NCBI GenBank assembly: GCA_963790475.1
Contig: CAWBOS010000006.1
Coordinates: 768,001 to 832,000, forward strand
Source: an uncultured delta proteobacterium
Lineage (GTDB): Bacteria; Desulfobacterota; RBG-13-43-22
DNA length: 64,000 nt
Reading direction: 5' to 3'
A program made the translations under genes and the position numbers. The notes under the pieces are model-generated. The model was not told where the DNA came from. It made no database searches and worked only from the letters and a program-made list of their open reading frames with translations. The stretch's first letter is position 1; every line of letters begins with the position of its first letter. Below are positions 5,803 through 58,632 of this stretch, one piece after another.

Positions 5803-6191
5803 GGCGATCTCCTTTCAAAATTCTAGAAAACCTTCAGCCCACGGCTGAATCGTTTTTATAGCTTCCTTATTTTATCAAAAAATACTTCTACTGTCTTCGG
5901 TACCGGGGTTTCTCGACTCCACCTCAATAAAACAACTTGATGGAAGTTTTACACCACATTGAGGGAAGTTAGTCAAGATAGAAAGAGACAATCACCCCGG
6001 ATTTAAGTGAAATAGCTCCATTGGAGGCCAAGGAAAAATAAAATGATCACCCTCATCCTTTCCGAAGGCTCCTATTTCCCCGAGGAGAATTTAGAATTTG
6101 TATTAAGATTCAAGAGTAGATCTAATCCCTTTTCATAAATTTCTTGCTTTAGTGAATAAAAAATGAAATCCTCTATGAAAAGGAGAGGGAA

Positions 6192-31450: not shown

Positions 31451-31499
31451 TGAGATATTCACAACAACAGATTAACAGAACCGAAAAATTCTTTTTTCA

Positions 31500-31624
31500 C
31501 AGATTGCTCAAAAAGGCCCAGATACAAGGCGCCCGAAATCGTGAGGAGTGAGGCGTACAGAGAAGTACGCCGCAATGACGAGGGATGAGGGCAACGAAGT
31601 AGATGTGACTTTTTCAGCAATCTG
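31500..31624. mobile_element. MITE-like element
   Basis: Terminal IRs CAGATTGCTCAAAAAG / CTTTTTCAGCAATCTG; internal hairpin GGCGTAC..GTACGCC. Confidence 0.7.
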
Positions 31625-31639
31625 ATAAGGAGTATCGTT

Positions 31640-32425: not shown

Positions 32426-33436
32426 GTGAGTAAAAAGATCTTAGTAGTAGTTGATGAAGAGATCGATCGGAGGGTCATTCGACTTCATTTGGAGCGGGAA
32501 GGATGGATGGGGATCAAAGCAGTGGACGGGGTCGAGGCCCTGGGAATTCTGGAAAAGGAATCAATCGCCCTGGTGCTTTATGATATCAAGATGCCCGGGA
32601 TGGACGGGATCACCTTTTTGACCCGAATAAAAGAAAAGGGGATTACGATCCCGGTGATCATGCTCTTGAGGTTTGTGGATATGGAAACAGTCACCCAAGT
32701 TCTACGAAAGGGGGCCTTTGATGTTCTGACCAAACCGATTCAGAGGGAGAGTTTGATCTTGGCAGTGAACCGGGGGGTGGAGTATCAGACGCTTTGGGAA
32801 GACAATAGAAGACTGAAAGAAGAAAATCAAAAATACCAAGAGAATCTGGAACAGGTTGAAACGGTTTATCTGGAACTGGTCAAAACACTGGCCGAGGCCA
32901 TCGAGACCAAAGATGCCTATACGCGGGGACACTGTGAACGGGTCCCTGAGTTTTCGCTTAACATAGCCAAAACCATGGGCCTTTCCCTTAATGAAATACG
33001 TGACATTCTCTTAGCCGGCATCCTCCATGATGTTGGAAAAATCGGCATTTCGGAAGCGATTTTGACCAAACCGGGTCCTTTGGATCAAAGGGAATGGGCG
33101 ATGATTCAAGAGCACCCCGCCCTGGGACTTAACATCATTCAACATGTGGGCTTTCTGGGTAAAGCCCGGGAGATCATCGCCCAACATCATGAACGCTATG
33201 ATGGGATGGGTTATCCCAAAGGATTGCAAGGGGAAGCCATACATCTGGGTGCCCGTATCCTGGCGGTGGCCGATTCTTATGATGCCATGAGTTCGGAACG
33301 TCCCTACCACCCGTCAATGAATAAGGAAACGATCATCAAAGAGATTCGTAAACAGGCAGGGCTCCAATTCGATCCCCGGGTTGTGGAAATTTTTTTAACC
33401 CTGTTAGCTCAAGAAGGAAAAGAAAAATTCGACTGA
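32426..33436 (+). CDS. REC + HD-GYP response regulator (putative c-di-GMP phosphodiesterase)
   Basis: DIKMPGMDG; KDAYTRGH; LHDVGKIG; HHERYDGMGYP. Confidence 0.92.
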   Translation: MSKKILVVVDEEIDRRVIRLHLEREGWMGIKAVDGVEALGILEKESIALVLYDIKMPGMDGITFLTRIKEKGITIPVIMLLRFVDMETVTQVLRKGAFDVLTKPIQRESLILAVNRGVEYQTLWEDNRRLKEENQKYQENLEQVETVYLELVKTLAEAIETKDAYTRGHCERVPEFSLNIAKTMGLSLNEIRDILLAGILHDVGKIGISEAILTKPGPLDQREWAMIQEHPALGLNIIQHVGFLGKAREIIAQHHERYDGMGYPKGLQGEAIHLGARILAVADSYDAMSSERPYHPSMNKETIIKEIRKQAGLQFDPRVVEIFLTLLAQEGKEKFD

Positions 33437-33456
33437 GTCCGGACGAATTTAAGGAT

Positions 33457-33798
33457 TTGGTAAGCCGGGCCTTGGATGAAATCCCCGAGGAATTCCTGGA
33501 GAAGCTGGAGAATTTAGATATCTTCGTGGAAGAGGTCCCCTCCCCGGAATTATTGGAGGAATTGGGTTTGACCGAGGAGGGCCTTCTTTTCGGATTGTAT
33601 CAGGGCGTCCCCATTTCGGGAAAAAGTTTTTTCCAGGGCCAAAGCCTCCCGGACCGCATTATAGTATTTCGACAGCCCATCCTTTCCATCTGCCGCACTG
33701 AAATTGATATCCTGCAACAAATTAAGAAGACCCTGATCCATGAAATAGCCCATCATTTCGGCCTGTCTGAAGCCAGGATACGTCATCTGGGGTATTAG
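33457..33798 (+). CDS. Zincin-like minimal metallopeptidase (DUF1025 family)
   Basis: LFGLYQGVP, PDRI, HEIAHHFG; start uncertain (frame extends upstream as IRLSPDEFKDL). Confidence 0.88.
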   Translation: MVSRALDEIPEEFLEKLENLDIFVEEVPSPELLEELGLTEEGLLFGLYQGVPISGKSFFQGQSLPDRIIVFRQPILSICRTEIDILQQIKKTLIHEIAHHFGLSEARIRHLGY

Positions 33799-33807
33799 AC
33801 TCAACCT

Positions 33808-33828
33808 TAGTGGAACGATTCATTGGGC
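33808..33828 (-). other. Truncated attC (R''/L'' arm only)
   Basis: GCCCAAT-GAATCG-TTCCAC after the methyltransferase stop; nearly complementary to that cassette's GTTGGGC start. Confidence 0.5.
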
Positions 33829-33846
33829 TGTTCTTGTGCGTGCTGC

Positions 33847-34611
33847 TCATTTCTCTCCCCGTATCATCCCCATAGTTCCCAAAATAAAAGGCGCTTTCAA
33901 CAGGCGTGGGATAAAGGGCGAGTTTCTGGTTTGAATGAATTCCACATTGGCTATTCCCCAGCTCTTAATAGTGGTGATTAACGAGTCTATATCGCCGTAC
34001 ATATTCTTGATGAGGAACTCGTCTTGAAAAGCGAACCTGCCCCCTTTCTTAAGAACCCGCAACGCTTCATGAATAACTTCACGTTTGTCTCTGACACCGC
34101 CGACCTCATGGAAGACGAAATTGCTCACCGCTGCATCGAAATACTCGTCAGCGAATGGCAATGACGCGGCACTGCCTTTCTGGAACGCTACTCGGTTACT
34201 GACTCCCTCAATTGCCGCGTTGCGTTCACAGACCTTCATCGAGTAATCCCACTTCTTTCCCCAATAGTCTATTCCGAGGACGCGTGCCCTTCCGTGTCTC
34301 TGAGCCAGTTTGATGGCGAGGGCACCGTTCCCGCACCCTATGTCCAAGGCTCTCCCTTCTCCATTCCAGTCTAAATGGTCTAACAGGAGCCTCCAAATGG
34401 ATTCTTGCACATTTCCCGCTTTGGGAGAAAGCCTGAAACGAACATACGACAGAAAGGCAGCGACCAGCAAAAAGAATACAGATGGAATCAACAGGAAAGA
34501 CCATATCAGACTCGATGCCAGGAACAGGAGCGCTATTGCGAGGGGAACATAAATCATTAGTTTTGGTGTCCAATTGCCATAATCTGGATTCTCTCTGATC
34601 TGCCCGTTCAT
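33847..34611 (-). CDS. Class I SAM-dependent methyltransferase (gene cassette)
   Basis: LDIGCGNG, SNFVFHE, RVLKKGG. Confidence 0.9.
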   Translation of the reverse strand: MNGQIRENPDYGNWTPKLMIYVPLAIALLFLASSLIWSFLLIPSVFFLLVAAFLSYVRFRLSPKAGNVQESIWRLLLDHLDWNGEGRALDIGCGNGALAIKLAQRHGRARVLGIDYWGKKWDYSMKVCERNAAIEGVSNRVAFQKGSAASLPFADEYFDAAVSNFVFHEVGGVRDKREVIHEALRVLKKGGRFAFQDEFLIKNMYGDIDSLITTIKSWGIANVEFIQTRNSPFIPRLLKAPFILGTMGMIRGEK

Positions 34612-34642
34612 ATGCTCCAGTCCTTCATGTTTATGTGTTGCA

Positions 34643-34699
34643 GCCCAACGTCTTCATTCAGCGGCCAGCGAAGCTGGTCCCTGGCACGAAATGTTAGGC
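34643..34699 (-). other. Integron attC site (57 bp)
   Basis: GCCTAAC-ATTTCG..CCAGC-TTC-GCTGG..-GTTGGGC: RYYYAAC / GTTRRRY ends with a central hairpin, between two cassette genes. Confidence 0.85.
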
Positions 34700-34706
34700 C
34701 GCATCA

Positions 34707-35123
34707 TTATGAGTCTACTGATTGTGGGAGCACCGGCTTGATATCGACTACGGGCGTTCCATCAATCGCTTCTACCGGTGTCACCTTTAATCTATTGCCA
34801 GCGATTTCGAGAACCGTAACTCGATGTAAGCCAAGTGGATTGGGTCTATCGGGAGACCGTGTCGCAAAGACGCCCGTCAGAGGCATGTTCTTGTCCCCGC
34901 GGGGGTGCAACTTCAATATGTCGCGATGAGCCTTATGAAACCATGTGATCAAAATAATTTCATTGCCCGCTGCAATACCCTCAAGCCCCTCCGCAACCGT
35001 CGAATTTACTTCGAGCCAGGCATCGGGAGCACCTTCGTATCCCTGACGAGGTGCCGCTTCAGGATTCGTCAGTTCGGAGCGTATGACCCCTATGGGGTCG
35101 ATCGTATAGATGGTTTCGGCCAT
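34707..35123 (-). CDS. tsaA: TsaA/TrmO (YaeB)-family SAM-binding protein (gene cassette)
   Basis: APRQG, GVFATRSPDRPNPLGL, DGTPVVDIKP. Confidence 0.9.
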   Translation of the reverse strand: MAETIYTIDPIGVIRSELTNPEAAPRQGYEGAPDAWLEVNSTVAEGLEGIAAGNEIILITWFHKAHRDILKLHPRGDKNMPLTGVFATRSPDRPNPLGLHRVTVLEIAGNRLKVTPVEAIDGTPVVDIKPVLPQSVDS

Positions 35124-35179
35124 ATCTTTTTCCTATGAGATTGTCGTGCTTCTTCCTTCACCGCAGTAGATTGCGGCCT

Positions 35180-35312
35180 AACAAGTTATTCTAAAGTTCA
35201 TAACTTGACAAATCTGAAGTTTCATTCGGTGAAATCAACCCCGTCCTTTGTTTTTTTTGATGACATCAGGGTTGTTTAGCTCCTCAGATTCTTTGTAACC
35301 CATTATAAATGA
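35180..35312 (-). repeat. attI-like direct repeat, copy 1
   Basis: ~130 bp similar to 41066-41197; ends TAGAAT-AACTT-GTT then AGGC. Confidence 0.75.
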
Positions 35313-35349
35313 GGAGTATTTAAATAGAAATTGCGCAAAAGATCACTCT

Positions 35350-35688
35350 TCACCGGTGATTGGACACTGTGGGGGCAGGGACTAACGACGGCTTGCGATT
35401 GGTTGACTTCATTTTTTCAGGTTTCTCCATCCATGAAGGAAGTCTGGTTCCTGTTGCCTCCGCATAGAGGGTTTCGGGAGCGATATCGAGGTCATTGCCC
35501 CAGGTTAATACGCCGAGTTCTTTGTTAATCTGAAAAGCACGAAAATATTCGATGTTTTTAAATTTTTTAAAGACACCGCCACGTTTTAAATATTTTGAAA
35601 AATCAACAACCCCGTGCTTGCCGTCATCGAAAAAAAGTTCTATTAAATAATCGCCTTTGTACTCAGTACCGATAATATCATGAATCAT
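35350..35688 (-). CDS. DUF2442-domain protein (TA-associated)
   Basis: Y.IELFFDDG..G.VDF..L..GGVF..TWGNDLDIAPETLY. Confidence 0.85.
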   Translation of the reverse strand: MIHDIIGTEYKGDYLIELFFDDGKHGVVDFSKYLKRGGVFKKFKNIEYFRAFQINKELGVLTWGNDLDIAPETLYAEATGTRLPSWMEKPEKMKSTNRKPSLVPAPTVSNHR

Positions 35689-35800
35689 GTTCTATCCTCA
35701 GCCCAAAACATAGCTTAGACGATTTTATTTTAACCCCTTCGCGTGGTCCGACCCCTATACCCCCATTTGGAATCATTCACGTCCACAGCTCGGCGGCAAA

Positions 35801-36097
35801 TTAGGGGTGAGCAAGGACCTGTATATCAGCAAGGCGTTTACCAATGTTCGCATTCGCGATTTTTAAGTCGTAAGACGCCTGAAGATTGAGCCAGTATTGC
35901 GGTGACTGGTTGAATACACACCCGAACAACAATGCCAGTTCCGCTGTCACCGGACGATCGCCCTTGACAACATGGGAAATCCGCATAGGCGATACCCCAA
36001 TAGCACGCGCGAACTCAGCTTGAGATAACTTCATTTCACCTAAAATCTCTGCCAAGAACTCTCCTGGATGAATTGCAGGCAAACCATTTTCAACCGT
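35801..36097 (-). pseudogene. higA: HigA antitoxin copy 1 (ATG changed to ACG; only DYH* of higB remains upstream)
   Basis: IHPGEFL..SPQYWLNLQASYDL; ACG at the position of the ATG in copy 2. Confidence 0.75.
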
Positions 36098-36124
36098 CTT
36101 TGTGTCTCCTTTAGTGATAATCAA

Positions 36125-36333
36125 GGATTTATATCAAGGAGTGCCCATATCGGGGAAAAGTTTTTTTTCAGGGACAGAGCCTTCCGGACTGGATCATCCT
36201 ATTTCGACACCCCATCCTTTCAATCTGCCGCACTGAAAATGATATCCTGAAACAAATCAAGAAGACCCTGATCCATGAAATAGCCCATCACTTCGGCCTG
36301 ACCGAGGCCCGGATACGTCATTTGGGGTATTAG
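36125..36333 (+). pseudogene. 3' fragment of the zincin-like metallopeptidase gene (copy 2)
   Basis: Close DNA similarity to ~33592-33798 through the stop codon; frameshift in a T-run. Confidence 0.85.
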
Positions 36334-36590
36334 AAGAATCGTTCATACTCGTTATGACTACCAACCCAGAACCACGTTAAGGTATCTTTATCCAGAACAC
36401 CCAGGGCACGGTACCCAAGTGTAATCCTTACCGCCCAGATATTTTCATCCCGGTTTATGCACTTAAAACGCAAAGAAGGATGAAAAGGATCGTCAGCCCA
36501 AAGACGATATGCCTTTTTGGCCTTGCCTCTGATTTGGCGATTGAGATTATGATAACGTTCCCAGAATGATGGTACTGTGGCAGATTTCAT
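36330..36590 (-). CDS. RelE/ParE-superfamily toxin
   Basis: FHPSLRFK..WAVRITLGYRALG..WFWVGSHNEY. Confidence 0.85.
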   Translation of the reverse strand: MKSATVPSFWERYHNLNRQIRGKAKKAYRLWADDPFHPSLRFKCINRDENIWAVRITLGYRALGVLDKDTLTWFWVGSHNEYERFF

Positions 36591-36817
36591 AGCTTGTCGA
36601 TATCCAAAGGGGTTGCCAGGCCCTCTGCAATTTCCTTACGTACTTGCCGAGCTGCTGTTACAAGATTGGTTTGAGTTCGGGAGAATGACTCATTCCACAA
36701 TACTTCATCCCGAAGATCTTCGATGTATTCGCGTAAATGCTCGAGCACCCGATCCTGAGCTTGCGCCGGCAGTGTTTCAAGCATTTTAATGATTGTCATC
36801 GTTGCTTCTGAAGTCAT
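36587..36817 (-). CDS. Putative antitoxin coupled to the toxin
   Basis: 76 aa, ATGA overlap with the toxin, GGAGG RBS. Confidence 0.8.
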   Translation of the reverse strand: MTSEATMTIIKMLETLPAQAQDRVLEHLREYIEDLRDEVLWNESFSRTQTNLVTAARQVRKEIAEGLATPLDIDKL

Positions 36818-36841
36818 AGGTTCCTCCTTATGTTATCTATT

Positions 36842-36897
36842 TATCAACGAAAAGTTCACCGGGAGCGGTAGCGATCCGGTGGGATGAAGTATTGTGA
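36842..36897 (-). other. attC-like site preceding the TA cassette
   Basis: TCACAAT..CACCGG-ATCGCTACCGCTC-CCGGTG..GTTGATA, followed by RBS and ATG. Confidence 0.7.
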
Positions 36898-37074
36898 GAT
36901 TCATGACATTTTTTTAAAAGTATTTTGCTTAAGAGCCTTTTTTTGAAAGCAAAAAGGTGCCCTTAGCCAATTTCTTGCCTCCGTTTTCAGACAATTCTAT
37001 TTTAACTCCTTCGCGTGGTCCGACTCCCCTATACCCCCATTTGGAATCATTCACGTCCACAGCTCGGCGGCAGA

Positions 37075-37371
37075 CTAGGCGTGGGCAAGGGCATGTATAT
37101 CAGCAAGGCGTTTACCGATGTTCGCATTCGCGATTTTTAAGTCGTAAGACGCCTGAAGATTGAGCCAGTATTGCGGCGACTGGTTGAACACAAGCCCGAA
37201 CAACAATGCCAGTTCCGCTGTCACCGGACGATCACCCTTGACAATATGAGAAATCCGCATAGGCGATATCCCGATAGCACGCGCGAACTCAGCTTGGGAT
37301 AACTTCATTTCACCTAAGATCTCTGCCAAGAACTCTCCTGGATGAATTGCAAGCAAACCATTCTTAACCAT
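37075..37371 (-). CDS. higA: HigA-family antitoxin copy 2
   Basis: MVKNGLLAIHPGEFL.. after an AAAGGAG RBS. Confidence 0.88.
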   Translation of the reverse strand: MVKNGLLAIHPGEFLAEILGEMKLSQAEFARAIGISPMRISHIVKGDRPVTAELALLFGLVFNQSPQYWLNLQASYDLKIANANIGKRLADIHALAHA

Positions 37372-37384
37372 TTTTGTGTCTCCT

Positions 37385-37429
37385 TTAGTGATAGGAGACG
37401 ATTTCAACATCATAAGCATCTCCGTCGCT
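37385..37429 (-). pseudogene. higB: HigB toxin C-terminal remnant
   Basis: SDGDAYDVEIVSYH*. Confidence 0.7.
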
Positions 37430-37451
37430 GCCTCTCGGTGAGGCAGGAAAT

Positions 37452-37601
37452 AGGTCCTTCCCCTGAACTGTTAAAGGAATTGGGGATGTCCGACCGCGAC
37501 CTTCTTTTCGGATTATATCAGGGAGTACCCATTTCGGGAAAATGTTTTTTCCAGGGCCAGAGCCTCCAGGACCGGATTATACTATTTCGACAACCTATCC
37601 T
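37452..37601 (+). pseudogene. Internal fragment of the zincin-like metallopeptidase gene (copy 3)
   Basis: PSPELLKELG..LLFGLYQGVPISGK..DRIILFRQPIL; ends beside the RAYT element. Confidence 0.85.
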
Positions 37602-37608
37602 ATAAAAT

Positions 37609-38679
37609 GGGACGTTGTTCACTTTATTCACTGTTGATAGTTTTTTGCCTCTATTCTTTTAATGGCCATGGCCACTCCCGTAGTCCCAATTCCAACCAGG
37701 CGAGCGATTTCGGCCATTGGAATCCCGAGATCTCGGTTAAAATAGAAACAGAGTCTTTTCCGTAGTTCCGATACTGCTTTTCGTTGGCCCCCTGATATTA
37801 ACTCGATTTCCTTGACCCCGGCTTCATGACATCTTTCTTTGATAATCTTCGATAACGATCCAGCTTTCTTTCGAGCTCGTATTTGGCGGGTCAACTTTTG
37901 ATCTGCTTCTTCCAGAATTCCCTGGACGAAATCTCCATCTCCTAATATCCGTTCATCATAAGTCTCGGATTCGCCCTTCTTTCTTAGAGATAAAACTCGC
38001 GACCATCCCCCCAGACTCCGAATCAATCCGCCACCGACCAATTCTGGCCTTTGTCCAAGGCCCTTTCCTGCCGCCACAAATTCCCGGTAAGCTTGAACGG
38101 CCTTTCTCTTTTTGGACCCAAAAAACCCGAGCACAAAATCTTTTTCCTGAAAATCGTTTGTCCGCTTGCCGGATAAAATCCCGTGGCCGCACCAGGGGTA
38201 GTTTTCCAATTCTTCAAGATCATTAACCAATCTAGCCCTAAGAGGATTCAGGTGGATATATCGGACCAGTTCCAGAAGGTACGGATCCAGGTCACAAATA
38301 ATTGATTTGTATCGGTTCTGAAACAGATGCCCGAATCTCCGATATTTCCGGTTATACCCAATGGCATAACCGGTTAACAAACGTCGCATAAAGGTTGGAA
38401 GACCCGCCGGTCCGCTGATTAATAACAAATGGACATGATTATCCAACAGCGCCCAGGCCAAAATAAGGGTTCCGGTTTCCTTAACCAAGGAATTGATCCT
38501 ATCGAGAAAATCCTTTCGATCTTCCGCATCCTGGAAAATATTACTTCCTTCTATCCCTCGTACCATAATATGGTGCAGGGTTCCGGGGATATCTAACCGA
38601 GCTTTTCGAGGCATAATTCTTTATAAACAGTTTTGCTCTTAATGTCAAAATTAATTGTGAATTAAATGAACAACGTCCC
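37609..38679 (-). mobile_element. Y1/RAYT-transposase element with 23-bp terminal inverted repeats
   Basis: GGGACGTTGTTCACTTTATTCAC (37609-37631) vs reverse complement of 38657-38679, 21/23 identical. Confidence 0.75.
37628..38614 (-). CDS. REP-associated tyrosine transposase (HUH Y1) with C-terminal DnaA-C-like HTH
   Basis: MPRKAR..HHIMVRG, NHVHLL, GHLFQNRY, YIHLNP. Confidence 0.92.
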   Translation of the reverse strand: MPRKARLDIPGTLHHIMVRGIEGSNIFQDAEDRKDFLDRINSLVKETGTLILAWALLDNHVHLLLISGPAGLPTFMRRLLTGYAIGYNRKYRRFGHLFQNRYKSIICDLDPYLLELVRYIHLNPLRARLVNDLEELENYPWCGHGILSGKRTNDFQEKDFVLGFFGSKKRKAVQAYREFVAAGKGLGQRPELVGGGLIRSLGGWSRVLSLRKKGESETYDERILGDGDFVQGILEEADQKLTRQIRARKKAGSLSKIIKERCHEAGVKEIELISGGQRKAVSELRKRLCFYFNRDLGIPMAEIARLVGIGTTGVAMAIKRIEAKNYQQ

Positions 38680-38693
38680 CCTTTAGAGAAGCC

Positions 38694-41018
38694 TCAAACG
38701 CCTTCACGCAGTGTCCAGAACATCTCCCGCACTTGGTCATCCGTGACGAGGTCTTGCCGAACGGGTATCCGGTCCCGCCAGTGCCCGCTGCCCTCTTCAT
38801 GATTCCGCGATCCCTCTTCGCGCTCGGCGATATCCTCATCGAGCCGCCTAATCTCATACTCAAGATCGAGGCCGTACTCAGTACTGAGTCTGTCGAGTGA
38901 CTCCCGCAGCCCTGTCAGCTCATCAACGGTCGTACAGTCGAAACGCTCATCCCTAGCGCCGTTCTGTACGTAGTGCCGAAGCGCCGTCTCTAGTTGCTTT
39001 TCATCGGCATCGCTCCATTCGAATGCCTTCGCGGGGAACGCGAGGAGGTCGAGCCAGTCGTCTGCCCTCGCGTAGTCGAGTGCATCTACGACCCCGGTCA
39101 AAAGCCTGCGGTACACTTCGTGCCCACCGTGGTCGAGGAACCAGCGATTCTCCGCAATCGCGGCCAGTAGGCGTAGCACTGGTCCGAAATCGACGCCCTG
39201 CTGCTCCCACTCTCGGACAAGTTTCCCCGCCAGTTGAGAGGCCATCGCGGCAAGCTGTGTTGAATTATGAACTGCGGCGATTTTCGCAAGGAACCCCACC
39301 TTGCCTTCATAGCTCATATCAATCGGGTAGCCCCTATGAGTACCGTCCGGCATCTTCTCCCAGCGCATGGAGGGGCCCTCCAGCAGGCGTGACAACGGTC
39401 GACAAAGAAGATCGGTATTCGTCGTTAGAACATTGCTGAGTTCGCTGTCAGGTTGGGCAGCGGCGAGTTCCCAGAGATTCACAATCTGCTTGAATCGAGC
39501 GGCCGAATTAAGAAGGTCTTCGGCGATTTCGCGCTCGTTGCTGATCATCGAGGCCACGAAGTCCCGAACAGAAGGGTTAAGGAAGCTCGCGTACCCCTTG
39601 CTATACGAGAGAAAGGCGCCTTCCAGCTCCTGAAGAGCCCGGTGGAAATCTCCTGCACGAATCTGCTGATGGTACTTGGCGGCACTGTACCGGTGGAGCG
39701 CTATGAAGGCCGGTTCTAGGTCGACCGTATCCGACCATCCGCCGAACGTGTTGAAGCTGAGGAGAACGTGGCGCGCCGCGCCCGAGATTTGGTTGTGGAA
39801 CGCGTGGGCCCAGATGGTGTCCGGTGACTCTATCAGGGCCAAGACGTGTGTCCTGTAGCTATCCGCCGGAACTTGTCTCAGGCGCGAATAAGCTGATAGC
39901 CACTCGATCAGTCTAGGATTGAAGTGCTCGTGCTTGATAATATCGAGGAAGAAGTCCTCCTTCAGCAGTTCGTCTTTGTACTCCTGTGGGAGGTCACTGA
40001 AATAGAGATGGTTATAGAGAAGCCGGGCTCGGGTCCCATACGAATAGTCGCCCAGCTGGAGGATGCAGCGATGGTCTAAGATCGGACTGTGGGCAAGCCG
40101 CTCCGAGATTTGGAGAGCCCCGCTCAGGATATGTTCCCGCGTAGTGAGAATGAATCGAGACTGGGGGGACCGGCGGACCATCTCCATGAAATCCACCATC
40201 GCTGTATCTTGATTTCTGCCAAGGTATTCGCGGCGGTCGCCCAAGAATGTCTGGCCGAGGAAGTCGTCGTAGTAGAAGATTTGCTTGCGCGCGGACTTGA
40301 AGAGATCCTTCGCCTCGGAAATCTCCGCTTTGATCGCGACCGGCTCGTATCCGTCTTCCAAATGTGAGTAGAGGAGCATCTCGGCCAGTGTGGTCTTGCC
40401 GATCCCTGGGGGGCCCGTCACAACGACAATGCGGGTTTCGTTGAGGATCTCAGTCGCCCGCGGGTAAGCATCGCTCTTGACGAACAGAGGAAGCTTGCGA
40501 CGTAGGCGATCAACCTCGAAATCTGTCTGGCACAACGTTGCATTGTGAAGCACTCGATCGAGAACGCTCGTGCTGGTGAGCCATAGTTTAAAGTTGGCGC
40601 GCTCGACCTCCGAATGGCGGCTGAGCAGGCCTTCGATATCGTCTGCGCCGAGGACGTCCCGAACACTCAACACGAACGGCTGAAGCGCTGTGACGATTTC
40701 GTCCTTATTGCCGGGAGTGAGGCTGACAGAGGTTGCTACCACATAACGGGTCGGGCCCAAGCGCTGGATCTTTGGGAGTTCTCCGGCACGCAGATTCGCC
40801 AGCAACTTGGCGAACCCAGAGTTCGCGAAGTGCTTGCACTGGATGATTGTCGCACCATCGTCTGCCGGCGCATACCGCAAGTCGATCCCACGATCACGGC
40901 CGCTGCGGAAGGCTTCGAGCGCGATCTTCCACTCCGCCTGTAGAAGATCGCGGATCAACTCCTCAAAGTCCTGACCTGAGAGAGATTTGAAGTCGTAACG
41001 TGGCATTCGCTGCACCAT
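38694..41018 (-). CDS. Mrr-like restriction endonuclease fused to a STAND (nSTAND3-like) NTPase; candidate defence protein
   Basis: FEEL..DRGIDL..IQCKH nuclease; GPPGIGKT Walker A; YYDDFLG Walker B; ILTTRE; visibly GC-richer than flanks. Confidence 0.85.
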   Translation of the reverse strand: MVQRMPRYDFKSLSGQDFEELIRDLLQAEWKIALEAFRSGRDRGIDLRYAPADDGATIIQCKHFANSGFAKLLANLRAGELPKIQRLGPTRYVVATSVSLTPGNKDEIVTALQPFVLSVRDVLGADDIEGLLSRHSEVERANFKLWLTSTSVLDRVLHNATLCQTDFEVDRLRRKLPLFVKSDAYPRATEILNETRIVVVTGPPGIGKTTLAEMLLYSHLEDGYEPVAIKAEISEAKDLFKSARKQIFYYDDFLGQTFLGDRREYLGRNQDTAMVDFMEMVRRSPQSRFILTTREHILSGALQISERLAHSPILDHRCILQLGDYSYGTRARLLYNHLYFSDLPQEYKDELLKEDFFLDIIKHEHFNPRLIEWLSAYSRLRQVPADSYRTHVLALIESPDTIWAHAFHNQISGAARHVLLSFNTFGGWSDTVDLEPAFIALHRYSAAKYHQQIRAGDFHRALQELEGAFLSYSKGYASFLNPSVRDFVASMISNEREIAEDLLNSAARFKQIVNLWELAAAQPDSELSNVLTTNTDLLCRPLSRLLEGPSMRWEKMPDGTHRGYPIDMSYEGKVGFLAKIAAVHNSTQLAAMASQLAGKLVREWEQQGVDFGPVLRLLAAIAENRWFLDHGGHEVYRRLLTGVVDALDYARADDWLDLLAFPAKAFEWSDADEKQLETALRHYVQNGARDERFDCTTVDELTGLRESLDRLSTEYGLDLEYEIRRLDEDIAEREEGSRNHEEGSGHWRDRIPVRQDLVTDDQVREMFWTLREGV

Positions 41019-41065
41019 CCCCGGGCATTATGTCACGGGATACCTACTCGTGTGCGGTCGCCGAG

Positions 41066-41197
41066 AACAAGTTGTTCTAAGGTTTTCGTATAACTTGACA
41101 AATCAAAAGTTTCGTGAAATCAACCCCCGATCCTTTGTTTTTTGATGACATCAGGGTTGCCTAACTCTTCAGATTCTTTGTAACTCATTATAAATGA
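41066..41197 (-). repeat. attI-like direct repeat, copy 2
   Basis: TAGAAC-AACTT-GTT then CTCG; similarity to copy 1 stops exactly after GTT. Confidence 0.75.
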
Positions 41198-41216
41198 TAA
41201 ATATTATCATAACAAC
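41188..41216 (-). promoter_or_regulatory. Pc-like sigma70 promoter facing the cassettes, containing a Fur-box-like palindrome
   Basis: TTGTTA-17-TATAAT on the minus strand; TGATAAA-T-ATTATCA in the spacer. Confidence 0.55.
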
Positions 41217-41319
41217 TGTATAATATTGCTTAAAATTTGAGGCAGGTATATTCTTCAAAACAACATGATATACAGAAATAGATGGATTCATCCTTCTGGT
41301 TGTACCTTTTCCTTGGTAG

Positions 41320-42294
41320 CTATTCCCGCTCAAACGGTTTCCCAAGACCTGAGGGAGGGGCCAGGCGCAGGAATCCGGCCAGGGACCTGCCGATCGGTCC
41401 TGGTAAGAGTTCCACCACTCGTTCCAGTCTTTGATTACTTACCAGGGCCAGGACGACGATCATGAAAACAAAAGGAGCCACCTGAAAGACCTGGATGGGC
41501 ATTGAAGGTAATACCCCCTGAAGGAGGATACCCAGGGATTGAAGCCCGCCGAACAGATAGGTGCCCAGTGCTGCTTTGAAGGGATGCCAGCCGCCGAAGA
41601 TGACGATGGCCAGGGCGATCCAGCCGATCCCCAGGGTATGCTGATAACTCCATCCCAGCTTGACGCTCAAGGAAAAATTGGCCCCGGCCAGGCCCACTAG
41701 GCTTCCGCCGATCAGGGTGTAAAGGTAGCGGACACCTCTGACAGAAATCCCCCGGGCATAGGCCGCTTCCGGGCGTTCACCCACCCCGCGCATGGCCAGG
41801 CCCGGTCCGGTCTTGAATATCCAGAACCAGGCCAGAAATATCAGTAGAAAACTGCCATAGGTAAACAGGTTATGGTTAAAGAAGAGAGGACCCAGAACCG
41901 GTATGTCTTTTAAAATCGGTATGGCCAGGTGCGGCATCTCCGGCCCGGGTTTTCGGACAAAGGGGTTCCCCAGGAAGGAACTGAGATCGGTGGCCAGCAA
42001 AGTCATAATGAACCCCACCGCCACCTGATCTTGACGGAGTTCGATACCGGCCACTACCACAATGAGGGCGACCAGGGCCCCAATCCCCATGGCCGACAAG
42101 AGGCCAAGGACCAGGCTGCCTGAGCCATAGGCCACGGCAAATCCGGTCATGGCCGAAAGCAAAATACTTCCGTCCAGGGAAAGGTTGATGACCCCGGCCT
42201 TCTCGGTTATGGTCTCCCCGATGCAGGCATAGACCAGAGGAGATGAATCAGCCAGGATGGAGGCCAGCATCCGTATCAGAAAATCCCAGTCCAT
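41320..42294 (-). CDS. ABC transporter permease (nucleoside/sugar type)
   Basis: EKAGVINL, VGERPEAAYARG, GWIALAIVIFGGW. Confidence 0.92.
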   Translation of the reverse strand: MDWDFLIRMLASILADSSPLVYACIGETITEKAGVINLSLDGSILLSAMTGFAVAYGSGSLVLGLLSAMGIGALVALIVVVAGIELRQDQVAVGFIMTLLATDLSSFLGNPFVRKPGPEMPHLAIPILKDIPVLGPLFFNHNLFTYGSFLLIFLAWFWIFKTGPGLAMRGVGERPEAAYARGISVRGVRYLYTLIGGSLVGLAGANFSLSVKLGWSYQHTLGIGWIALAIVIFGGWHPFKAALGTYLFGGLQSLGILLQGVLPSMPIQVFQVAPFVFMIVVLALVSNQRLERVVELLPGPIGRSLAGFLRLAPPSGLGKPFERE

Positions 42295-42362
42295 ATTTTA
42301 GTCCCTTGAGTAAATCAACATCAACAAAGCTTTGTCGATCAGATCCTAAAATCCTCTTTCCT

Positions 42363-42441
42363 GTCACCCCGGCGAAAGCCAGGGTCCAGTCCCGCCAAGG
42401 CTAAATTAAATTCCTGGATTCCGGGTCAAGCCCGGAATGAC
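42363..42441. repeat. REP doublet (REPIN-like)
   Basis: GTCACCCCGGCGAAAGCCAGGGTCCAG ... CTGGATTCCGGGTCAAGCCCGGAATGAC in inverted orientation. Confidence 0.7.
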
Positions 42442-42583
42442 GAAAAGGTGCTTTTGTTTTTTAAACAACGTCGTCTACCTTGAAGTTGAACCGTTTACAA
42501 TTTCAAAAAGGTGTAATAAGAAAACAGGATTCGAGATTCATCCTTCGATTATTCCTATTTTCATGCATTGTGGTGTCACGCCC

Positions 42584-53883: not shown

Positions 53884-56800
53884 TTATTTTCTTATACCTG
53901 TAAACTTGGTTTTAAAACTCCTATCCGATCCATAGGTGGTTCCAGCACTATTGGTAGCTACAAGGCGGTAATGATATACGGTATAAGAACTCAGTCTGGT
54001 AATACCGGCAGACACCGCCATATTGCTTGTGCCGCTTCCAGATGAGGTAACGGTCGTGTTATTACCATAAGAAGTAGTCCGCCCCCACTGAAAAACATAA
54101 GTCGTGGATAAGCCGTTGGGATTGACCGTCCCGTTCAGAGTGGCGGAACTCCAGGGTACCAAGGTGGCTGAGCCGGTTACGACCATAGGCTGATTTATTC
54201 CCGTACTTAAACTAAAGGTTGCGGTAACACTCACATTCGCGTTCATGGTCACCTGGCAGGTAGTCGACATCCCGGAACAGCCGCCTGACCAACCGTTGAA
54301 TACGGAATTGGAATCCGGTGAGGTCGTCAAGGTGACGGCAGTGCCGGAAGGAAAGGTGGTCCCGGTCGGATTGACGGAAACACTTCCGCTCCCCGTCCCG
54401 ACTTTGCTTACTGTTAGGGTATAATTGGTAATGGTAGAAAATGTTGCGCTTATAGTATGGTTGGCGCTAACCGCAGAGAAAGTATAGGAAGCAATCGCCC
54501 CCTGAGACACTTCGTCCACGGTTACATTGGCAATCTTGTAACCGGCATTGGCTGCGATCGTAAAGGTCTGGTTAGCCCCGGACTGGACACTGATCCCTCC
54601 CGAGGGAGAAATAGCCCCGCCCGTTCCGGCCGTGGCGGTGATGGTGTAGATTTGGTTGTTGTTATTGGTAAAACTTTTATCTACTCCATAGGTGGTCCCT
54701 GCACTGTTGGTGGCCTTAAGGCGATAATGATAAACGGTATTAGACCTCAGCCTGGTTATATTGGCCGAAGAGGCGACATCGCTTGTGCCGCTTCCGACCG
54801 TGGTAACGGCCGTGGTACTACCGTAAGAAGTGGTCCGCCCCCATTGAAAAACATAGGTCGTGGATAAACCCTTTGGATTGACTGTACCGTTCAACTGGGC
54901 GGAACTTGAGGGTATCAATGTGGCTGATCCGGTAACAACTGTCGGTGGATTAGTTGCCGTACTGGAATTGAATATCGCGGTAACACTCACATTCGCGTTC
55001 ATGGTCACCTGGCAGGTAGTCGACATCCCGGAACAGCCGCCTGACCAACCGTTGAATACGGAATTGGAATCCGGTGATGCTGTCAGGGTGACCTGGGTGC
55101 CGGCGGGAAAGGAGGTTCCGGTGGGGTTGGAAGAGACACTGCCGCTTCCCGTCCCGGCATTGGTTATTGTAAGAGTGTATGTGTTGGAAACAAATGACGC
55201 AACGATAGTATGGTTGGCGTTTACGGTCGAGAAGGTATAAGAACTGATTGCTCCCCGAGAAACGCGGTCCACAGTCAGGTTGGCAATCTTGTAACCGGCA
55301 TTGGCTGCGATCGTAAAGGTCTGGTTAGCCCCGGACTGGACACTGATCTCTCCCGAGGGAGAAATAGCCCCGCCCGTTCCGGCCGTGGCGGTGATGGTGT
55401 AGATTTGGTTGTTGTTATTGGTAAAACTTTTATCTACTCCATAGGTGGTCCCTGCACTGTTGGTGGCCTTAAGGCGATAATGATAAACGGTATTAGACCT
55501 CAGCCTGGTTATATTGGCCGAAGAGGCGACATCGCTTGTGCCGCTTCCGGCCGGGGTAACGGCCGTGGTACTACCGTAAGAAGTGGTCCGCCCCCATTGA
55601 AAAACATAGGTCGTGGATAAACCCTTTGGATTGACTGTACCGTTCAACTGGGCGGAACTTGAGGGTATCAATGTGGCTGAGCCGGTAGCGACCATGGGCG
55701 GATTTAATACAGCGCTGAAGGTTGCGGTAACACTCACGTTCGAGTTCATGGCCACCTGACAGGTGGTCGTGCTCCCGGAACAGGCCCCCGACCAGCCTCC
55801 GAAGGTGGAATTGGCGTCAGGTGCGGCAGTCAAGGTGACTTTGGTGCCGGCCGGAAAAGAGGATCCGGTAGGGTCGGTAACAACACTACCGCTGCCCGTC
55901 CCATTTTTGAATATGTTCAGGGTATAGTTGGGAATGGTTGCGAAGGTTGCGTTGATAGTATGGTTGGCGGCCACCGTTTGAAAAGTGTAAGAGGTGATCG
56001 CCCCTTGGGATACGCTGTCTACCAGGACACTGGAAATTGTATAGCCGGAATTAGGGGCGATGGTAAAGCTTTGATTGGCCCCGGACTGGACACTAACCCC
56101 CCCCGAGGGAGAAATGGTTCCGCCGGTTCCGGCCGAAGCGGTGATGGTGTAGGTTTTAAGGTTGAAAGTTGCCGTGACGGAGACAATGGAATTCATCATT
56201 ACCTGACAGGTAGTCGAATTCCCGGAACAACCGCCGCCGGACCAGCCGCTGAATACGGAATTGGCATCCGGTAAGGCGGTTAGGGTAACCTGCGTCCCGG
56301 AGGAAAAGCTGGCCCCCGTCGGACTGGTCGAAACCGTGCCGCTGCCCGTCCCATTTTTGAATATGTTCAGGTTATAGTTGGGAATGGTCGTAAAGGTCGC
56401 GCTTATGGTGTGATTAGCAGTCACCCCTGTGAAGGTGTAAGAGGAGATCACCCCTTGGGATGCGCCATCGACCAGGACGTTGGAAATTGTATAGCCGGAA
56501 TTAGGGGCGATGGTAAAGCTTTGATTGGCCCCGGATTGGACATTGGTCACCCCCGATGGGGAAATGGATCCACCCGTTCCGGCCGAGGCGGTGATGGTGT
56601 AGGTCTTAAGGTTGAAAGTTGCCGTGACGGAGACAATGGAATTCATCATTACCTGACAGGTAGTCGAATTCCCGGAACAACCGCCGCCGGACCAGCCGCT
56701 GAATACGGAATTGGCATCCGGTAAGGCGGTTAGGGTAACCTGCGTCCCGGAGGAAAAGCTGGCCCCCGTCGGACTGGTCGAAACCGTGCCGCTGCCCGTC

Positions 56801-58563
56801 CCATTTTTGAATATGTTCAGGTTATAGTTGGGAATGGTCGTAAAGGTCGCGCTTATGGTGTGATTAGCAGTCACCCCTGTGAAGGTGTAAGAGGAGATCA
56901 CCCCTTGGGATGCGCCATCGACCAGGACGTTGGAAATCGTGTAGCCGCCATTCGGAGCGATGGTATAGATCTGATTGGCCCCGGACTGGACACTAACCCC
57001 CCCCGATGGGGAAATGGATCCACCCGTTCCGGCCGAGGCGGTTATGGTGTAGGTCTTAAGGTTGAAAGTTGCCGTGACGGAGACAATGGAATTCATCATT
57101 ACCTGACAGGTAGTCGAATTCCCGGAACAACCGCCGCCGGACCAGCCGCTGAATACGGAATTGGCATCCGGTAAGGCAGTTAGGGTAACCTGCGTCCCGG
57201 AGGAAAAGCTGGTCCCCGTCGGACTGGTCGAAACCGTGCCGCTGCCCGTCCCATTTTTGAATATGTTCAGGGTATAGTTGGGAATGGTTGCGAAGGTTGC
57301 GTTGATGGTATGGTTGGCGGCCACCGTTTGAAAAGTGTAAGAGGTGATCGCCCCTTGGGATACGCTGTCTACCAGGACACTGGAAATTGTATAGCCGGAA
57401 TTAGGGGCGATGGTAAAGCTTTGATTGGCCCCGGACTGGACACTAACCCCCCCCGAGGGAGAAATGGTTCCGCCGGTTCCGGCCGAAGCGGTGATGGTGT
57501 AGGTTTTGGGATTGAAGGTGGCGGTCACACTAACATTGGAACTCATGGTCACCTGGCAGGGATTTGTATTCCCGGAACAACCGCCGGACCAGCTGCTGAA
57601 AATGGAATTGGCATCCGGTGTGGCGGTCAGGGTGACTTTGGTGCCGGCCGGGAAAGAGGATCCGGTAGGGTCGGTAACAACACTACCGCTGCCCGTCCCG
57701 GCTTTGCTTGTCGAAAGGGTATAATAAGTGAGGGCGGCGAATGTTGCGCTTATGGTGTGGTTGGCACTTACCGCCGAGAAAGTATAGGAAGGGATCGTCC
57801 CCTGTGACACCCCGTCCACGGTTACACCAACAATCTTGTAGCCGGAATTAGGAGTGATGGTAAAGGTCTGATTAGCCCCGGACTGAACGCTGACTCCCCC
57901 CGATGGAGAAATGGACCCACCCGTTCCGGCTGAGGCGGTGATGGTGTAAGCAGCCAGGCCGGTTTCAGTTACCGTGAATACACTCCCGGCGATGGTCAAA
58001 CTTGCTATCCGGGTGGTCCCGGTGTTGGGAGAAACCGTGTAACTCATCGTCCCGTTTCCCATACCGGACCCGGAATTGACCGTGATCCAGGAGGGAGCCG
58101 TCGATGTCCCCCAATTGCAGCCGGCTTGGGAGGTGACCAGGACACTCCCCGATCCCCCGGAAGCGGCAAAGGAGGCACTTGAAGGGGAAATGGTAAAAGT
58201 GCAGGAGGGAACGGAATAGACCACTTCATTGGAGAACCCGCTCGATAGTCCTTGTGTATTATAAGCGGTTGCGGCGAAATAGTACGTCGCTCCAATGTTG
58301 AGGCCGCTTTGGGTGTAAGTAGTGGCATTACCAACATCAGTTTTCCACTGATAGTTTCCGGATGCCGTTCCGTAATAGATGTCATATCCGGCCAAATCCG
58401 GTTCGGTGTTGGGGTCCCAGGTGAGCGTAACCTGACTACAATGGCCTTTAGGATAAGGAAAGACCAGGAGAACGGCAATAAGGAAAATTGAAAGAAGTGT
58501 GGAAAGAAGAATCGACCCGCGGTAATAGGAGCGGTTGGTGAGACAACATTTTTTTGGTATCAT
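53884..58563 (-). CDS. Large secreted/surface protein with FN3, BACON-like and tandem InlB-B-like beta repeats (putative adhesin)
   Basis: Signal region, TLTWDPN..LAGY FN3, repeated YTITASAGTGG and FSGWSGGC units, three NSAGTTYG domains; start probably MIPKK. Confidence 0.88.
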   Translation of the reverse strand: MIPKKCCLTNRSYYRGSILLSTLLSIFLIAVLLVFPYPKGHCSQVTLTWDPNTEPDLAGYDIYYGTASGNYQWKTDVGNATTYTQSGLNIGATYYFAATAYNTQGLSSGFSNEVVYSVPSCTFTISPSSASFAASGGSGSVLVTSQAGCNWGTSTAPSWITVNSGSGMGNGTMSYTVSPNTGTTRIASLTIAGSVFTVTETGLAAYTITASAGTGGSISPSGGVSVQSGANQTFTITPNSGYKIVGVTVDGVSQGTIPSYTFSAVSANHTISATFAALTYYTLSTSKAGTGSGSVVTDPTGSSFPAGTKVTLTATPDANSIFSSWSGGCSGNTNPCQVTMSSNVSVTATFNPKTYTITASAGTGGTISPSGGVSVQSGANQSFTIAPNSGYTISSVLVDSVSQGAITSYTFQTVAANHTINATFATIPNYTLNIFKNGTGSGTVSTSPTGTSFSSGTQVTLTALPDANSVFSGWSGGGCSGNSTTCQVMMNSIVSVTATFNLKTYTITASAGTGGSISPSGGVSVQSGANQIYTIAPNGGYTISNVLVDGASQGVISSYTFTGVTANHTISATFTTIPNYNLNIFKNGTGSGTVSTSPTGASFSSGTQVTLTALPDANSVFSGWSGGGCSGNSTTCQVMMNSIVSVTATFNLKTYTITASAGTGGSISPSGVTNVQSGANQSFTIAPNSGYTISNVLVDGASQGVISSYTFTGVTANHTISATFTTIPNYNLNIFKNGTGSGTVSTSPTGASFSSGTQVTLTALPDANSVFSGWSGGGCSGNSTTCQVMMNSIVSVTATFNLKTYTITASAGTGGTISPSGGVSVQSGANQSFTIAPNSGYTISSVLVDSVSQGAITSYTFQTVAANHTINATFATIPNYTLNIFKNGTGSGSVVTDPTGSSFPAGTKVTLTAAPDANSTFGGWSGACSGSTTTCQVAMNSNVSVTATFSAVLNPPMVATGSATLIPSSSAQLNGTVNPKGLSTTYVFQWGRTTSYGSTTAVTPAGSGTSDVASSANITRLRSNTVYHYRLKATNSAGTTYGVDKSFTNNNNQIYTITATAGTGGAISPSGEISVQSGANQTFTIAANAGYKIANLTVDRVSRGAISSYTFSTVNANHTIVASFVSNTYTLTITNAGTGSGSVSSNPTGTSFPAGTQVTLTASPDSNSVFNGWSGGCSGMSTTCQVTMNANVSVTAIFNSSTATNPPTVVTGSATLIPSSSAQLNGTVNPKGLSTTYVFQWGRTTSYGSTTAVTTVGSGTSDVASSANITRLRSNTVYHYRLKATNSAGTTYGVDKSFTNNNNQIYTITATAGTGGAISPSGGISVQSGANQTFTIAANAGYKIANVTVDEVSQGAIASYTFSAVSANHTISATFSTITNYTLTVSKVGTGSGSVSVNPTGTTFPSGTAVTLTTSPDSNSVFNGWSGGCSGMSTTCQVTMNANVSVTATFSLSTGINQPMVVTGSATLVPWSSATLNGTVNPNGLSTTYVFQWGRTTSYGNNTTVTSSGSGTSNMAVSAGITRLSSYTVYHYRLVATNSAGTTYGSDRSFKTKFTGIRK
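54180..57950. repeat. Intragenic tandem repeats with 450-bp and 753-bp periods
   Basis: Near-identical shadow ORFs at 55960/56410/56860/57310 and 54457/55210. Confidence 0.9.
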
Positions 58564-58632
58564 GACAGCATCCCCATTCTCAAGCAAGAAGGTTATTATT
58601 CAAACACCAGCTACAGCATGAGGATGCTGTGC

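Follow-up and report, generated by a model that had tools for sequence, protein, structure and literature searches.

An integrase-less cassette array with two copies of a multi-copy promoter and attI-like platform in an uncultured delta proteobacterium

An integron is usually described as one integrase gene (intI), one attI site and one array of cassettes. CALINs (clusters of attC sites lacking an integron integrase) are frequent, and neither how they arise nor how they are expressed has been explained. Their definition disregards attI; because attI sequences are unknown in the majority of integrons, hence not searchable, as set out in the portion of Cury et al. (2016, PMC4889954) used here, attI has not been sought at the head of CALINs. 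Here we describe positions 33,799-41,299 of a 64,000-nucleotide stretch (the window) from the genome of an uncultured delta proteobacterium (assembly GCA_963790475.1, contig CAWBOS010000006.1), which form an integrase-less cassette array read on the minus strand. The array very probably holds two copies, w1 and w2, of a genus-specific platform composed of a cassette promoter (Pc) and an attI of approximately 120 nt, a platform that belongs to a multi-copy family and into which cassettes would have been captured in trans.

Several features recall the sedentary chromosomal integrons of the Vibrio type. The element of the relatives has a divergent intI on one side and the first cassette on the other, with an outward promoter and a GTT core at which cassettes begin; the cassettes are promoterless, share one orientation and come with attC sites, toxin-antitoxin pairs and defence genes. 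Defence systems have been reported in sedentary chromosomal integron arrays (in the part of bioRxiv 10.1101/2024.07.02.601686 considered here). Unlike the Vibrio type, this genome has no intI and carries 11 full platforms, two of them in one array, and that array is short (7.3 kb) and rearranged. With two attC sites 2.1 kb apart, as called by a covariance model (R2, described below), and no intI nearby, the window also qualifies as a CALIN, and the genome has many more small attC clusters; what sets the window cluster and several others apart from CALINs is the recognisable Pc-attI platform that heads them on the same strand. Single cassettes or short arrays scattered on the chromosome far from an integrase are likewise seen in attG/SALIN insertions (SALIN, single attC site lacking an integron integrase), whose receiving sites are unrelated genomic sequences according to the sections of Loot et al. 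(bioRxiv 10.1101/2022.09.11.507474) drawn upon here. In the present genome, by contrast, the receiving site appears to be a copy of the integron's own attI and promoter. In the chromosomal integrons of Xanthomonas, intI is reportedly often inactivated, with one locus per genome and a retained intI pseudogene. They share with the present case an integron kept at a conserved locus across the genus (from the portion of bioRxiv 10.1101/2025.06.18.660453 at hand), and differ in that the window array has no intI remnant beyond the intergenic region and the genome has many platform copies. In its components the array matches a sedentary chromosomal integron, and the cluster fits the definition of a CALIN. 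We found no published account of many dispersed solo Pc-attI platforms heading attC clusters in a literature largely outside subscription journals. Queries on solo, orphan, multiple, duplicated or isolated attI turned up attI x attI assay papers alone, and the preprint 10.64898/2026.03.17.712381, in its accessible part, concerns an engineered attI1 and has no bearing on solo platforms.

The two platform copies and their parts are as follows.

35182-35345, minus strand: platform copy 1 (w1), crossover between G35182 and T35181 (nhmmer E 6.5e-34 and family alignments)
35307-35302, minus strand: -10 box TATAAT of the w1 promoter, preceded by a decayed -35 box, TTTCTA (alignments)
41187-41215, minus strand: w2 promoter, a Pc-type sigma-70 promoter TTGTTA-17-TATAAT with the palindrome GATAATATTTATC in the spacer
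41068-41186, minus strand: attI-like segment of w2, crossover between G41068 and T41067 (family alignments and junction table)
41222-41299, minus strand: remnant of the intI-Pc intergenic region, approximately 80 nt (upstream-region alignment)

The copies are 81.6% identical over 147 nt (blastn of 35160-35345 against 41046-41230, E 2.3e-33), and families D4 and D14 of a repeat search agree with this result. On the minus strand both terminate in AGAA(T/C)AACTTGTT and diverge right past GTT, with GTT/AGGCCGC in w1 and GTT/CTCGGCG in w2. An earlier reading of this DNA from its letters (the sequence-only reading) had reported a repeat of approximately 130 bp whose similarity stops at GTT on the minus strand. 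The two copies and their GTT end are confirmed, but the repeat is longer than proposed, extending over ~35182-35345 in w1 and ~41068-41299 in w2. The w2 promoter is the top promoter-like site in a scan of 33700-41400 (10/12 matches) and is of a type kept across the aligned copies of the element; the w1 promoter was not called in that scan.

Hereafter G000 denotes this genome and G001 onward its relatives, and L numbers denote extracted loci. With a profile made from the genome's own copies, nhmmer identified 11 full-length copies of the element in the 6.34 Mb searched (E 3e-40 to 7e-28), together with partial copies representing the promoter end alone or the 3' end alone. A full copy has three parts, namely a sigma-70 promoter (TTGTCA-17-TATAAT) with the palindrome GATAATATTTATC in its spacer, a moderately conserved stretch of approximately 120 nt, and the conserved terminus GTTATACAGAAAACTTTAGAATAACTTGTT. 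The attI-like segment terminates in ...AGAATAACTTG/TT (the slash marking the crossover), and the start codons of unrelated genes lie 20-60 nt past the element. GTTA-type motifs occur at the 5' end (GGTTAC), approximately 30 nt from the 3' end (AGTTAT), as an inverted ATAAC and as the terminal GTT; attI1 has four GTTA-type IntI sites. Of 42 copies, 31 have GTT at the junction and 35 have a purine at the position that follows; the signal has faded by the fifth base after GTT, and element junctions thereby follow a GTTRRRY pattern. At the DNA level the element was matched in 15 of 31 genomes including G000, that is, in 12 of 13 others of the same genus, in both genomes of the neighbouring genus g2 and in none of 15 more distant ones. 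Most genomes of the genus carry several copies of the element, and such scattered multiplicity of the platform is unusual for integrons.

Partial copies were recorded at both ends of the element. The promoter and palindrome GATAATATTTATC occur without the attI part at L009 5894-5946 (minus strand), at G000:C1:211371-211416, C10:874970-875005 and C10:1889010-1889086, and at other positions; one such copy precedes a DUF1003 gene, and every genome of the genus has many promoter-only matches. Fragments of the platform 3' end (the last 40-75 nt, ending in AACTTGTT) sit at cassette junctions within arrays, where an attC would be expected, as at L010 5309-5345, L029 5397-5471, L034 794-850 and G000:C13:505346-510498 (three copies).

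The link to an integrase comes from the relatives. In the window and in the whole 6.34-Mb genome intI is absent: none of 25 matches to TIGR02249 exceeds the cut-off (the best scores 105 bits against 265, and the best matches skip model positions ~180-235), and tblastn with a relative's IntI retrieves Xer-like genes at 31% identity at best. The proposal that no intI is adjacent to the array or present in the window therefore holds, and the array lacks the adjacent IntI-type recombinase of a complete integron. Elsewhere in the family, 6 of 21 genomes have intI above the TIGR02249 cut-off, at eight loci, seven of which were examined for the element. In four of the seven (L055, L050, L060 and L059, that is, G007:C174, G004:C14, G002:C47 and G001:C166) the element is found just upstream of intI and divergent from it. 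Homology in these intI-adjacent copies is unbroken from the promoter through the intergenic stretch to the ribosome-binding site and ATG of intI; for example, L060 6707-6937 corresponds to window 41289-41066 by blastn, and the intI frame of L060 begins at 6703. In the window, the intergenic remnant at 41222-41299, which in relatives reaches the intI ribosome-binding site and start codon, is fused approximately 20 nt from the stop of an ABC-permease gene. At the intI-linked loci the first cassette starts at the element's G/TT. The complete integron L055 of G007 illustrates this arrangement, with an element ending in ...AACTTGTT/AGCGAG, a first attC whose R'' flank is CTCGCTAAC, and further attC sites after it. 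Thus, homologues of the repeat are linked to intI in relatives, and the adjacency, the homology into the intI start and the cassettes starting from G/TT together indicate that the repeat is a Pc promoter plus attI platform, in line with the duplicated attI-plus-promoter platforms of the sequence-only reading. The element is the putative Pc-attI platform of one chromosomal-integron type of the genus, homology and junctions being what identifies its attI. The integrase linked to it (L060 5252-6703 and L055 1368-2780, both minus strand) has an open frame of 471-524 aa, or 484 aa from the likely start, with an N-terminal extension of ~170 aa that has no Pfam match before the SAM-like and catalytic domains.

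The cassettes next to w1 and the attC sites of the window provide a second line of evidence.

34649-35181, minus strand: cassette 1 after w1, with a TrmO_N-like gene at 34707-35123 (138 aa; Pfam TrmO_N 5.7e-28) and the attC 34643-34699
33806-34648, minus strand: cassette 2, with a class-I methyltransferase gene at 33847-34611 (Pfam, blastn)
33799-33828, minus strand: internally deleted attC, in which R'' GCCCAAT, a spacer and half of L'' are joined to R' GTTGAGT (alignment with the full attC of L029/L030)
36842-36897, minus strand: attC with a decayed R'' box (AAC to TAC) and R' GTTGATA (R2, and similar copies elsewhere in the genome)

Cassette 1 begins with TTAGGCCG. The site after its gene measures 57 nt, starts with GCCTAAC and ends with GTTGGGC, and its R'' flank CGGCCTAAC is complementary at 9/9 bases to the junction GTTAGGCCG. 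This matches the earlier description in which copy 1 continues as GTTAGGC into tsaA, whose attC starts with GCCTAAC, and then as GTTGGGC into a methyltransferase. Cassette 2 recurs in G008 (blastn, 90.1% to L029 6826-7664 and 88.5% to L030 1939-2776) with other neighbours on both sides and breakpoints exactly at G/TT. Distally, the array finishes with the internally deleted attC of this cassette, 0-7 nt away from the stop codon of a Zincin_1 gene.

The attC sites were scored with R2, an ad hoc model distinct from IntegronFinder: six attC seeds from relatives were used to search loci, and the model was rebuilt from 21 hits, none of them from the window. With filters off over 33000-42000, R2 gives 15.7 bits (E 0.015) to 36842-36897 and 14.5 bits (E 0.033) to 34643-34699, both on the minus strand; the latter also scores 13.2 bits (E 0.081) on the plus strand, and the next match in the region has 9.9 bits. 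The top three rows are therefore the two sites of the earlier note, one of them on both strands, and 34643-34699, which an attC model might have failed to score, is recognised. As single-stranded DNA, 34643-34699 folds at -10.9 kcal/mol (z -1.81 against shuffles) and 36842-36897 has z -1.88; 33800-33840 and 35375-35415 fold no better than shuffles. A third attC-like site of the earlier list, 33808-33828, is a piece of the internally deleted attC 33799-33828, so that cassettes in the window end in two attC sites supported by R2 and one that is internally deleted. The possible attC at 35380-35408 lacks support, since it scores 9.3 bits (E 1.2), has no fold and lies inside a DUF2442 frame that is conserved as coding in G004. 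Hand-written attC scanners were abandoned, as the strict version missed known sites and the loose one returned 251 matches against 192 in shuffled loci, and the MAFFT seed alignments A2-A4 were structurally misaligned and left unused, A5 being usable.

Across the genome R2 reports 27 sites at E<=1. Thirteen of these lie within 12 kb of an element match, all 13 on the element's strand and 10 of them downstream. An attC was recognised after the platforms at 6 of 9 platform loci of G000. The complementarity noted for cassette 1 can be generalised as an anchored 9-mer test, which superseded an exact 7-mer test: a match of at least 8/9 bases within 4 kb downstream exists for 20 of 38 junctions versus 282 of 1400 decoy pairings, and a 9/9 match for 4 of 38 versus 21 of 1400. 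R2 is narrow, and misses the attC at L011 4550-4606 (Mrr) and that of the SNase cassette in L009, two sites that visual inspection and their likeness to each other had revealed.

Two other views of the element can be weighed against these data. One holds that the repeat is a shared regulatory module (promoter, operator palindrome, and structured 5' leader or small RNA) for an accessory regulon, with no role in recombination. The promoter and the palindrome GATAATATTTATC are indeed very well conserved and also stand alone at other loci, start codons follow the element at a short distance, and single sequences fold into hairpins. Yet Rfam returns nothing relevant to the element at E<=1, RNAalifold finds the 3' terminal inverted repeat alone in 11 copies and no conserved pairs in 32, and there is neither consensus structure nor covariation, so the element does not qualify as a structured cis-regulatory RNA or small RNA. 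This view moreover leaves the GTT-RRRY end, the complement rule, the adjacency to intI and the strand shared with attC unexplained, and we regard it as barely credible. A regulatory role of the platform promoter is compatible with a Pc-attI platform. A promoter followed by a structured RNA, an initial interpretation suggested by single-fold hairpins and apparent alternative pairings, was rejected. According to the other view, the element is a promoter-bearing cassette without open reading frame (ORF), or an unusually long attC, copied by the integrase and next to intI as a frequent first cassette. Copies inside arrays (w1 and the three of L010, a-c), 3'-end fragments exactly at expected cassette junctions (e.g., L010 5309-5345 and L029 5397-5471) and the ability of the 5' AGGTTA to pair with the 3' TAACTT in single folds would suit such an origin. 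However, the 5' edge has no R''-type box or G/TT junction, and the unbroken homology from the element to the intI start leaves no room for a separate attI. Nor does the element form an attC hairpin, the 32 aligned copies having zero conserved pairs, and R2 matches just a 16-nt piece of it (35176-35191, 8.7 bits). This origin therefore seems very improbable.

The orthologous array of the sister species G004 bears on how the platforms have been used. It lies between the same two flanks as the window array.

33457-33798, plus strand: Zincin_1 gene, conserved distal flank (Pfam 5.2e-30; synteny with G004 L061 5047-6420)
41320-42294, minus strand: ABC-permease gene, conserved proximal flank (Pfam BPD_transp_2)

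Window 41066-42370 aligns contiguously, at 83%, with G004 L037 4177-2871, and the G004 array (8.4 kb) is flanked by the same ABC-permease and Zincin_1/response-regulator genes. The left junction of w2, without intI, is common to both genomes, and past G/TT each has a different first cassette. DUF2442 is the sole gene of the cassette region found in both arrays, at a different position. GGTTGAG is the last motif before the Zincin_1 stop in both, which sets the bounds of the window array at G41068/T41067 and at the terminal R' at 33805-33799, a span of 7.3 kb. Alongside a complete type-A integron, G004 has at least five solo platforms, and intact intI genes are present elsewhere in its genome. 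Because the intI-less w2 junction is common to the two species while the cassettes differ, and G004 has intI elsewhere, we infer that solo platforms have probably been served in trans by an integrase encoded elsewhere. Other loci show a comparable pattern: G004, G008 and G010 have orthologous platforms at the priA and L012 loci, with different content downstream. G005 and G008, both fragmented assemblies, have several platforms with canonical cassettes and no detected intI.

It might be argued instead that the platforms are pure relics, many complete integrons having each lost intI, and that use in trans never took place at solo platforms, now dead DNA supplying promoters. In keeping with this, the left ends of solo copies vary: ~16 reach no further than the promoter edge, several extend to the intI start, and some continue up to 250 nt into intI (L024 by ~250 nt, L026 by ~210 nt and L014 by 92 nt). 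Truncated intI genes lie near platforms in G014 and in G004:C38, and loss of the integrase is among the proposed origins of CALINs (Cury et al. 2016, PMC4889954, in the portion used here). Against it, the w2 junction shared by G000 and G004 without intI, with different cassettes, implies recombination at the platform after intI loss, and the ~16 copies that start within a few bases of the promoter are not readily explained. Tandem platforms in single arrays (w1 with w2, and three copies within 2.6 kb in L010, G000:C12) are unexplained by intI loss alone, and ten or more integrons per genome would be required. We consider an exclusively relic origin unlikely.

An integrase-less array with two Pc-attI platforms remains our preferred reading, and a number of observations weigh against it. 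The variable left ends just described also fit repeated intI loss from many complete integrons. Three of the seven intI loci of relatives are without the element, and these three represent a second integrase type. The assembly consists of 20 contigs with an estimated contamination of 9.7%, so that an unassembled intI is possible in G000. The window attC scores are modest and come from an ad hoc model, with default filters the whole window yields 36842-36897 alone (E 0.1), and the attC folds beat shuffles mildly (z ~-1.8 to -1.9). In its exact 7-mer form the complement rule is weak (10 of 28 junctions against 118 of 560 decoys, 21%). A recognisable attC was not found for the w2 cassette, and the complement of GTTCTCG is absent downstream; at three of the nine platform loci (L012, L013 and L014) an attC was likewise not found, two of these junctions having lost GTT. 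The support consists of homology, junctions and sequence motifs.

A possible mechanism can be outlined. The IntI of this lineage would have bound the element at its GTTA-type repeats, inserting folded attC circles at G/TT, and solo platforms may have been served in trans, as is possible in G004 with its one complete integron and at least five solo platforms. In G000, platforms would now act mainly as fixed promoters, w2 with a defence gene after it and w1 with a weakened -35. As G000 has no integrase, capture today would need an incoming one, and its platforms would accept cassettes again only upon such an arrival. A platform between two attC sites, as w1 is, might also travel as the cargo of a composite cassette that is excised and inserted at another place, a possible means of spread. 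Taken further, this suggests a "distributed integron", in which Pc-attI has multiplied to approximately 10 dispersed docking and expression sites per chromosome, with one or two integrase genes acting on all of them in trans (or with no integrase left, where it was lost), most integrase-less attC clusters here being working satellites and not debris, with the platform possibly spreading as composite-cassette cargo. We put this broader model forward tentatively, as plausible and yet somewhat short of probable. Here the attI-promoter module of a lineage is recognisable at the head of many scattered short arrays, some of them orthologous between species yet with different cassettes, several of which are anti-phage defence genes. 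Should use in trans be true, many "first" cassettes, and not a single one, could be expressed simultaneously from one genome, and once intI is lost a set of fixed accessory genes driven by promoters would remain. This offers a testable model for the formation and expression of CALINs, and the platforms a ready set of natural attI variants.

Between the Zincin_1 and ABC-permease genes lie accessory genes, all on the minus strand. The remaining contents of the window array, from w2 onward, are the following.

38694-41018, minus strand: first cassette gene after w2, restriction-endonuclease fold plus STAND NTPase, 774 aa (Pfam nSTAND3 1.5e-45, Mrr_cat)
37600-38688, minus strand: unit of 1.09 kb with a Y1_Tnp (IS200-like) plus DnaA_C-like gene and inverted ends GGGGACGTTGTTCA (inverted repeat I1, Pfam)
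37456-37601, plus strand: Zincin_1 fragment C, matching 33538-33683 (repeat D3, 84%; blastn)
37075-37419, minus strand: XRE-type helix-turn-helix (HTH) gene, copy 2 (Pfam HTH_3; repeat D1, 94%)
36330-36817, minus strand: ParE-like toxin (86 aa) and upstream partner of 76 aa (Pfam ParE_like 1e-11)
36129-36334, plus strand: Zincin_1 fragment B, the 3' end including the stop codon (repeats D2/D5; 86.9% to the full gene, 88.8% to the G004 gene)
35801-36124, minus strand: XRE-type HTH gene, copy 1 (Pfam HTH_3)
35350-35688, minus strand: DUF2442 gene (Pfam; blastn 87.6% to the copy of the orthologous G004 array, at another position)

The 774-aa gene, into which copy 2 continues from GTTCTCG as the sequence-only reading had it (a nuclease-STAND gene), is the candidate anti-phage system PDC-S73 in PADLOC (E 3.7e-156). 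Where the attC of this first w2 cassette would be expected lies the Y1_Tnp unit, which encodes a protein of 328 aa and is 78% identical to L055 8263-9335, within the complete integron array of G007. It is single-copy in G000 and found in integron arrays of two species, and it may be an insertion element favouring cassette arrays or attC sites. The ParE cassette has its own attC severed at the junction with Zincin_1 fragment B. Elsewhere in G000, a platform precedes a type IV Mrr gene (attC R'' ACCCAAC, 6/7 against the junction GTAGGGT), and others precede a CBASS (cyclic-oligonucleotide-based anti-phage signalling system) pair, an SNase-HhH protein, small toxin-antitoxin-like genes and genes of no assigned function. 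Defence genes (PDC-S73, type IV Mrr, CBASS) and toxin-antitoxin pairs of this kind are in keeping with integron arrays. The SNase-HhH (L009 ~3510-3580, minus strand) and Mrr (L011 4550-4640, plus strand) cassettes end in near-alike attC sites, and GTTCAAGAAGC... follows both, which indicates a next unit common to these two distant loci.

The two Zincin_1 fragments (36129-36334 and 37456-37601, 84-88% to the full gene) each abut the start of an XRE HTH copy, the HTH units at 35717-36124 and 36989-37419 being 94% alike, and G004 is without the fragments. This looks like the successive acquisition of foreign array ends via the flanking gene, or like an old tandem duplication. At L010, 3'-end fragments of an oligopeptide ABC ATPase gene, recognised by eye, stand directly upstream of two of the three tandem platforms (~4230-4390 and 5830-5920), and a 253-aa ORF has its C-terminal end repeated as well. 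Contigs from four metagenome runs, compared with 32500-42500, measured 82-670 nt and showed no joints, and are uninformative as to circular cassettes, variants or expression. Some of the pieces that match the window identically span 35293-35520 and 37460-37696, and may derive from the source sample.

Outside the array, window 31483-31636 is an intergenic stretch of approximately 150 nt with an inverted repeat (31500-31525/31599-31624), 79-85% identical to loci of three relatives (L046, L033 and L057). Further along, 53884-58587 (minus strand) is an ORF of 1567 aa with antisense ORFs every 450 nt (55960, 56410, 56860 and 57310), and their recurrence at this spacing suggests a 450-nt tandem repeat inside the gene.

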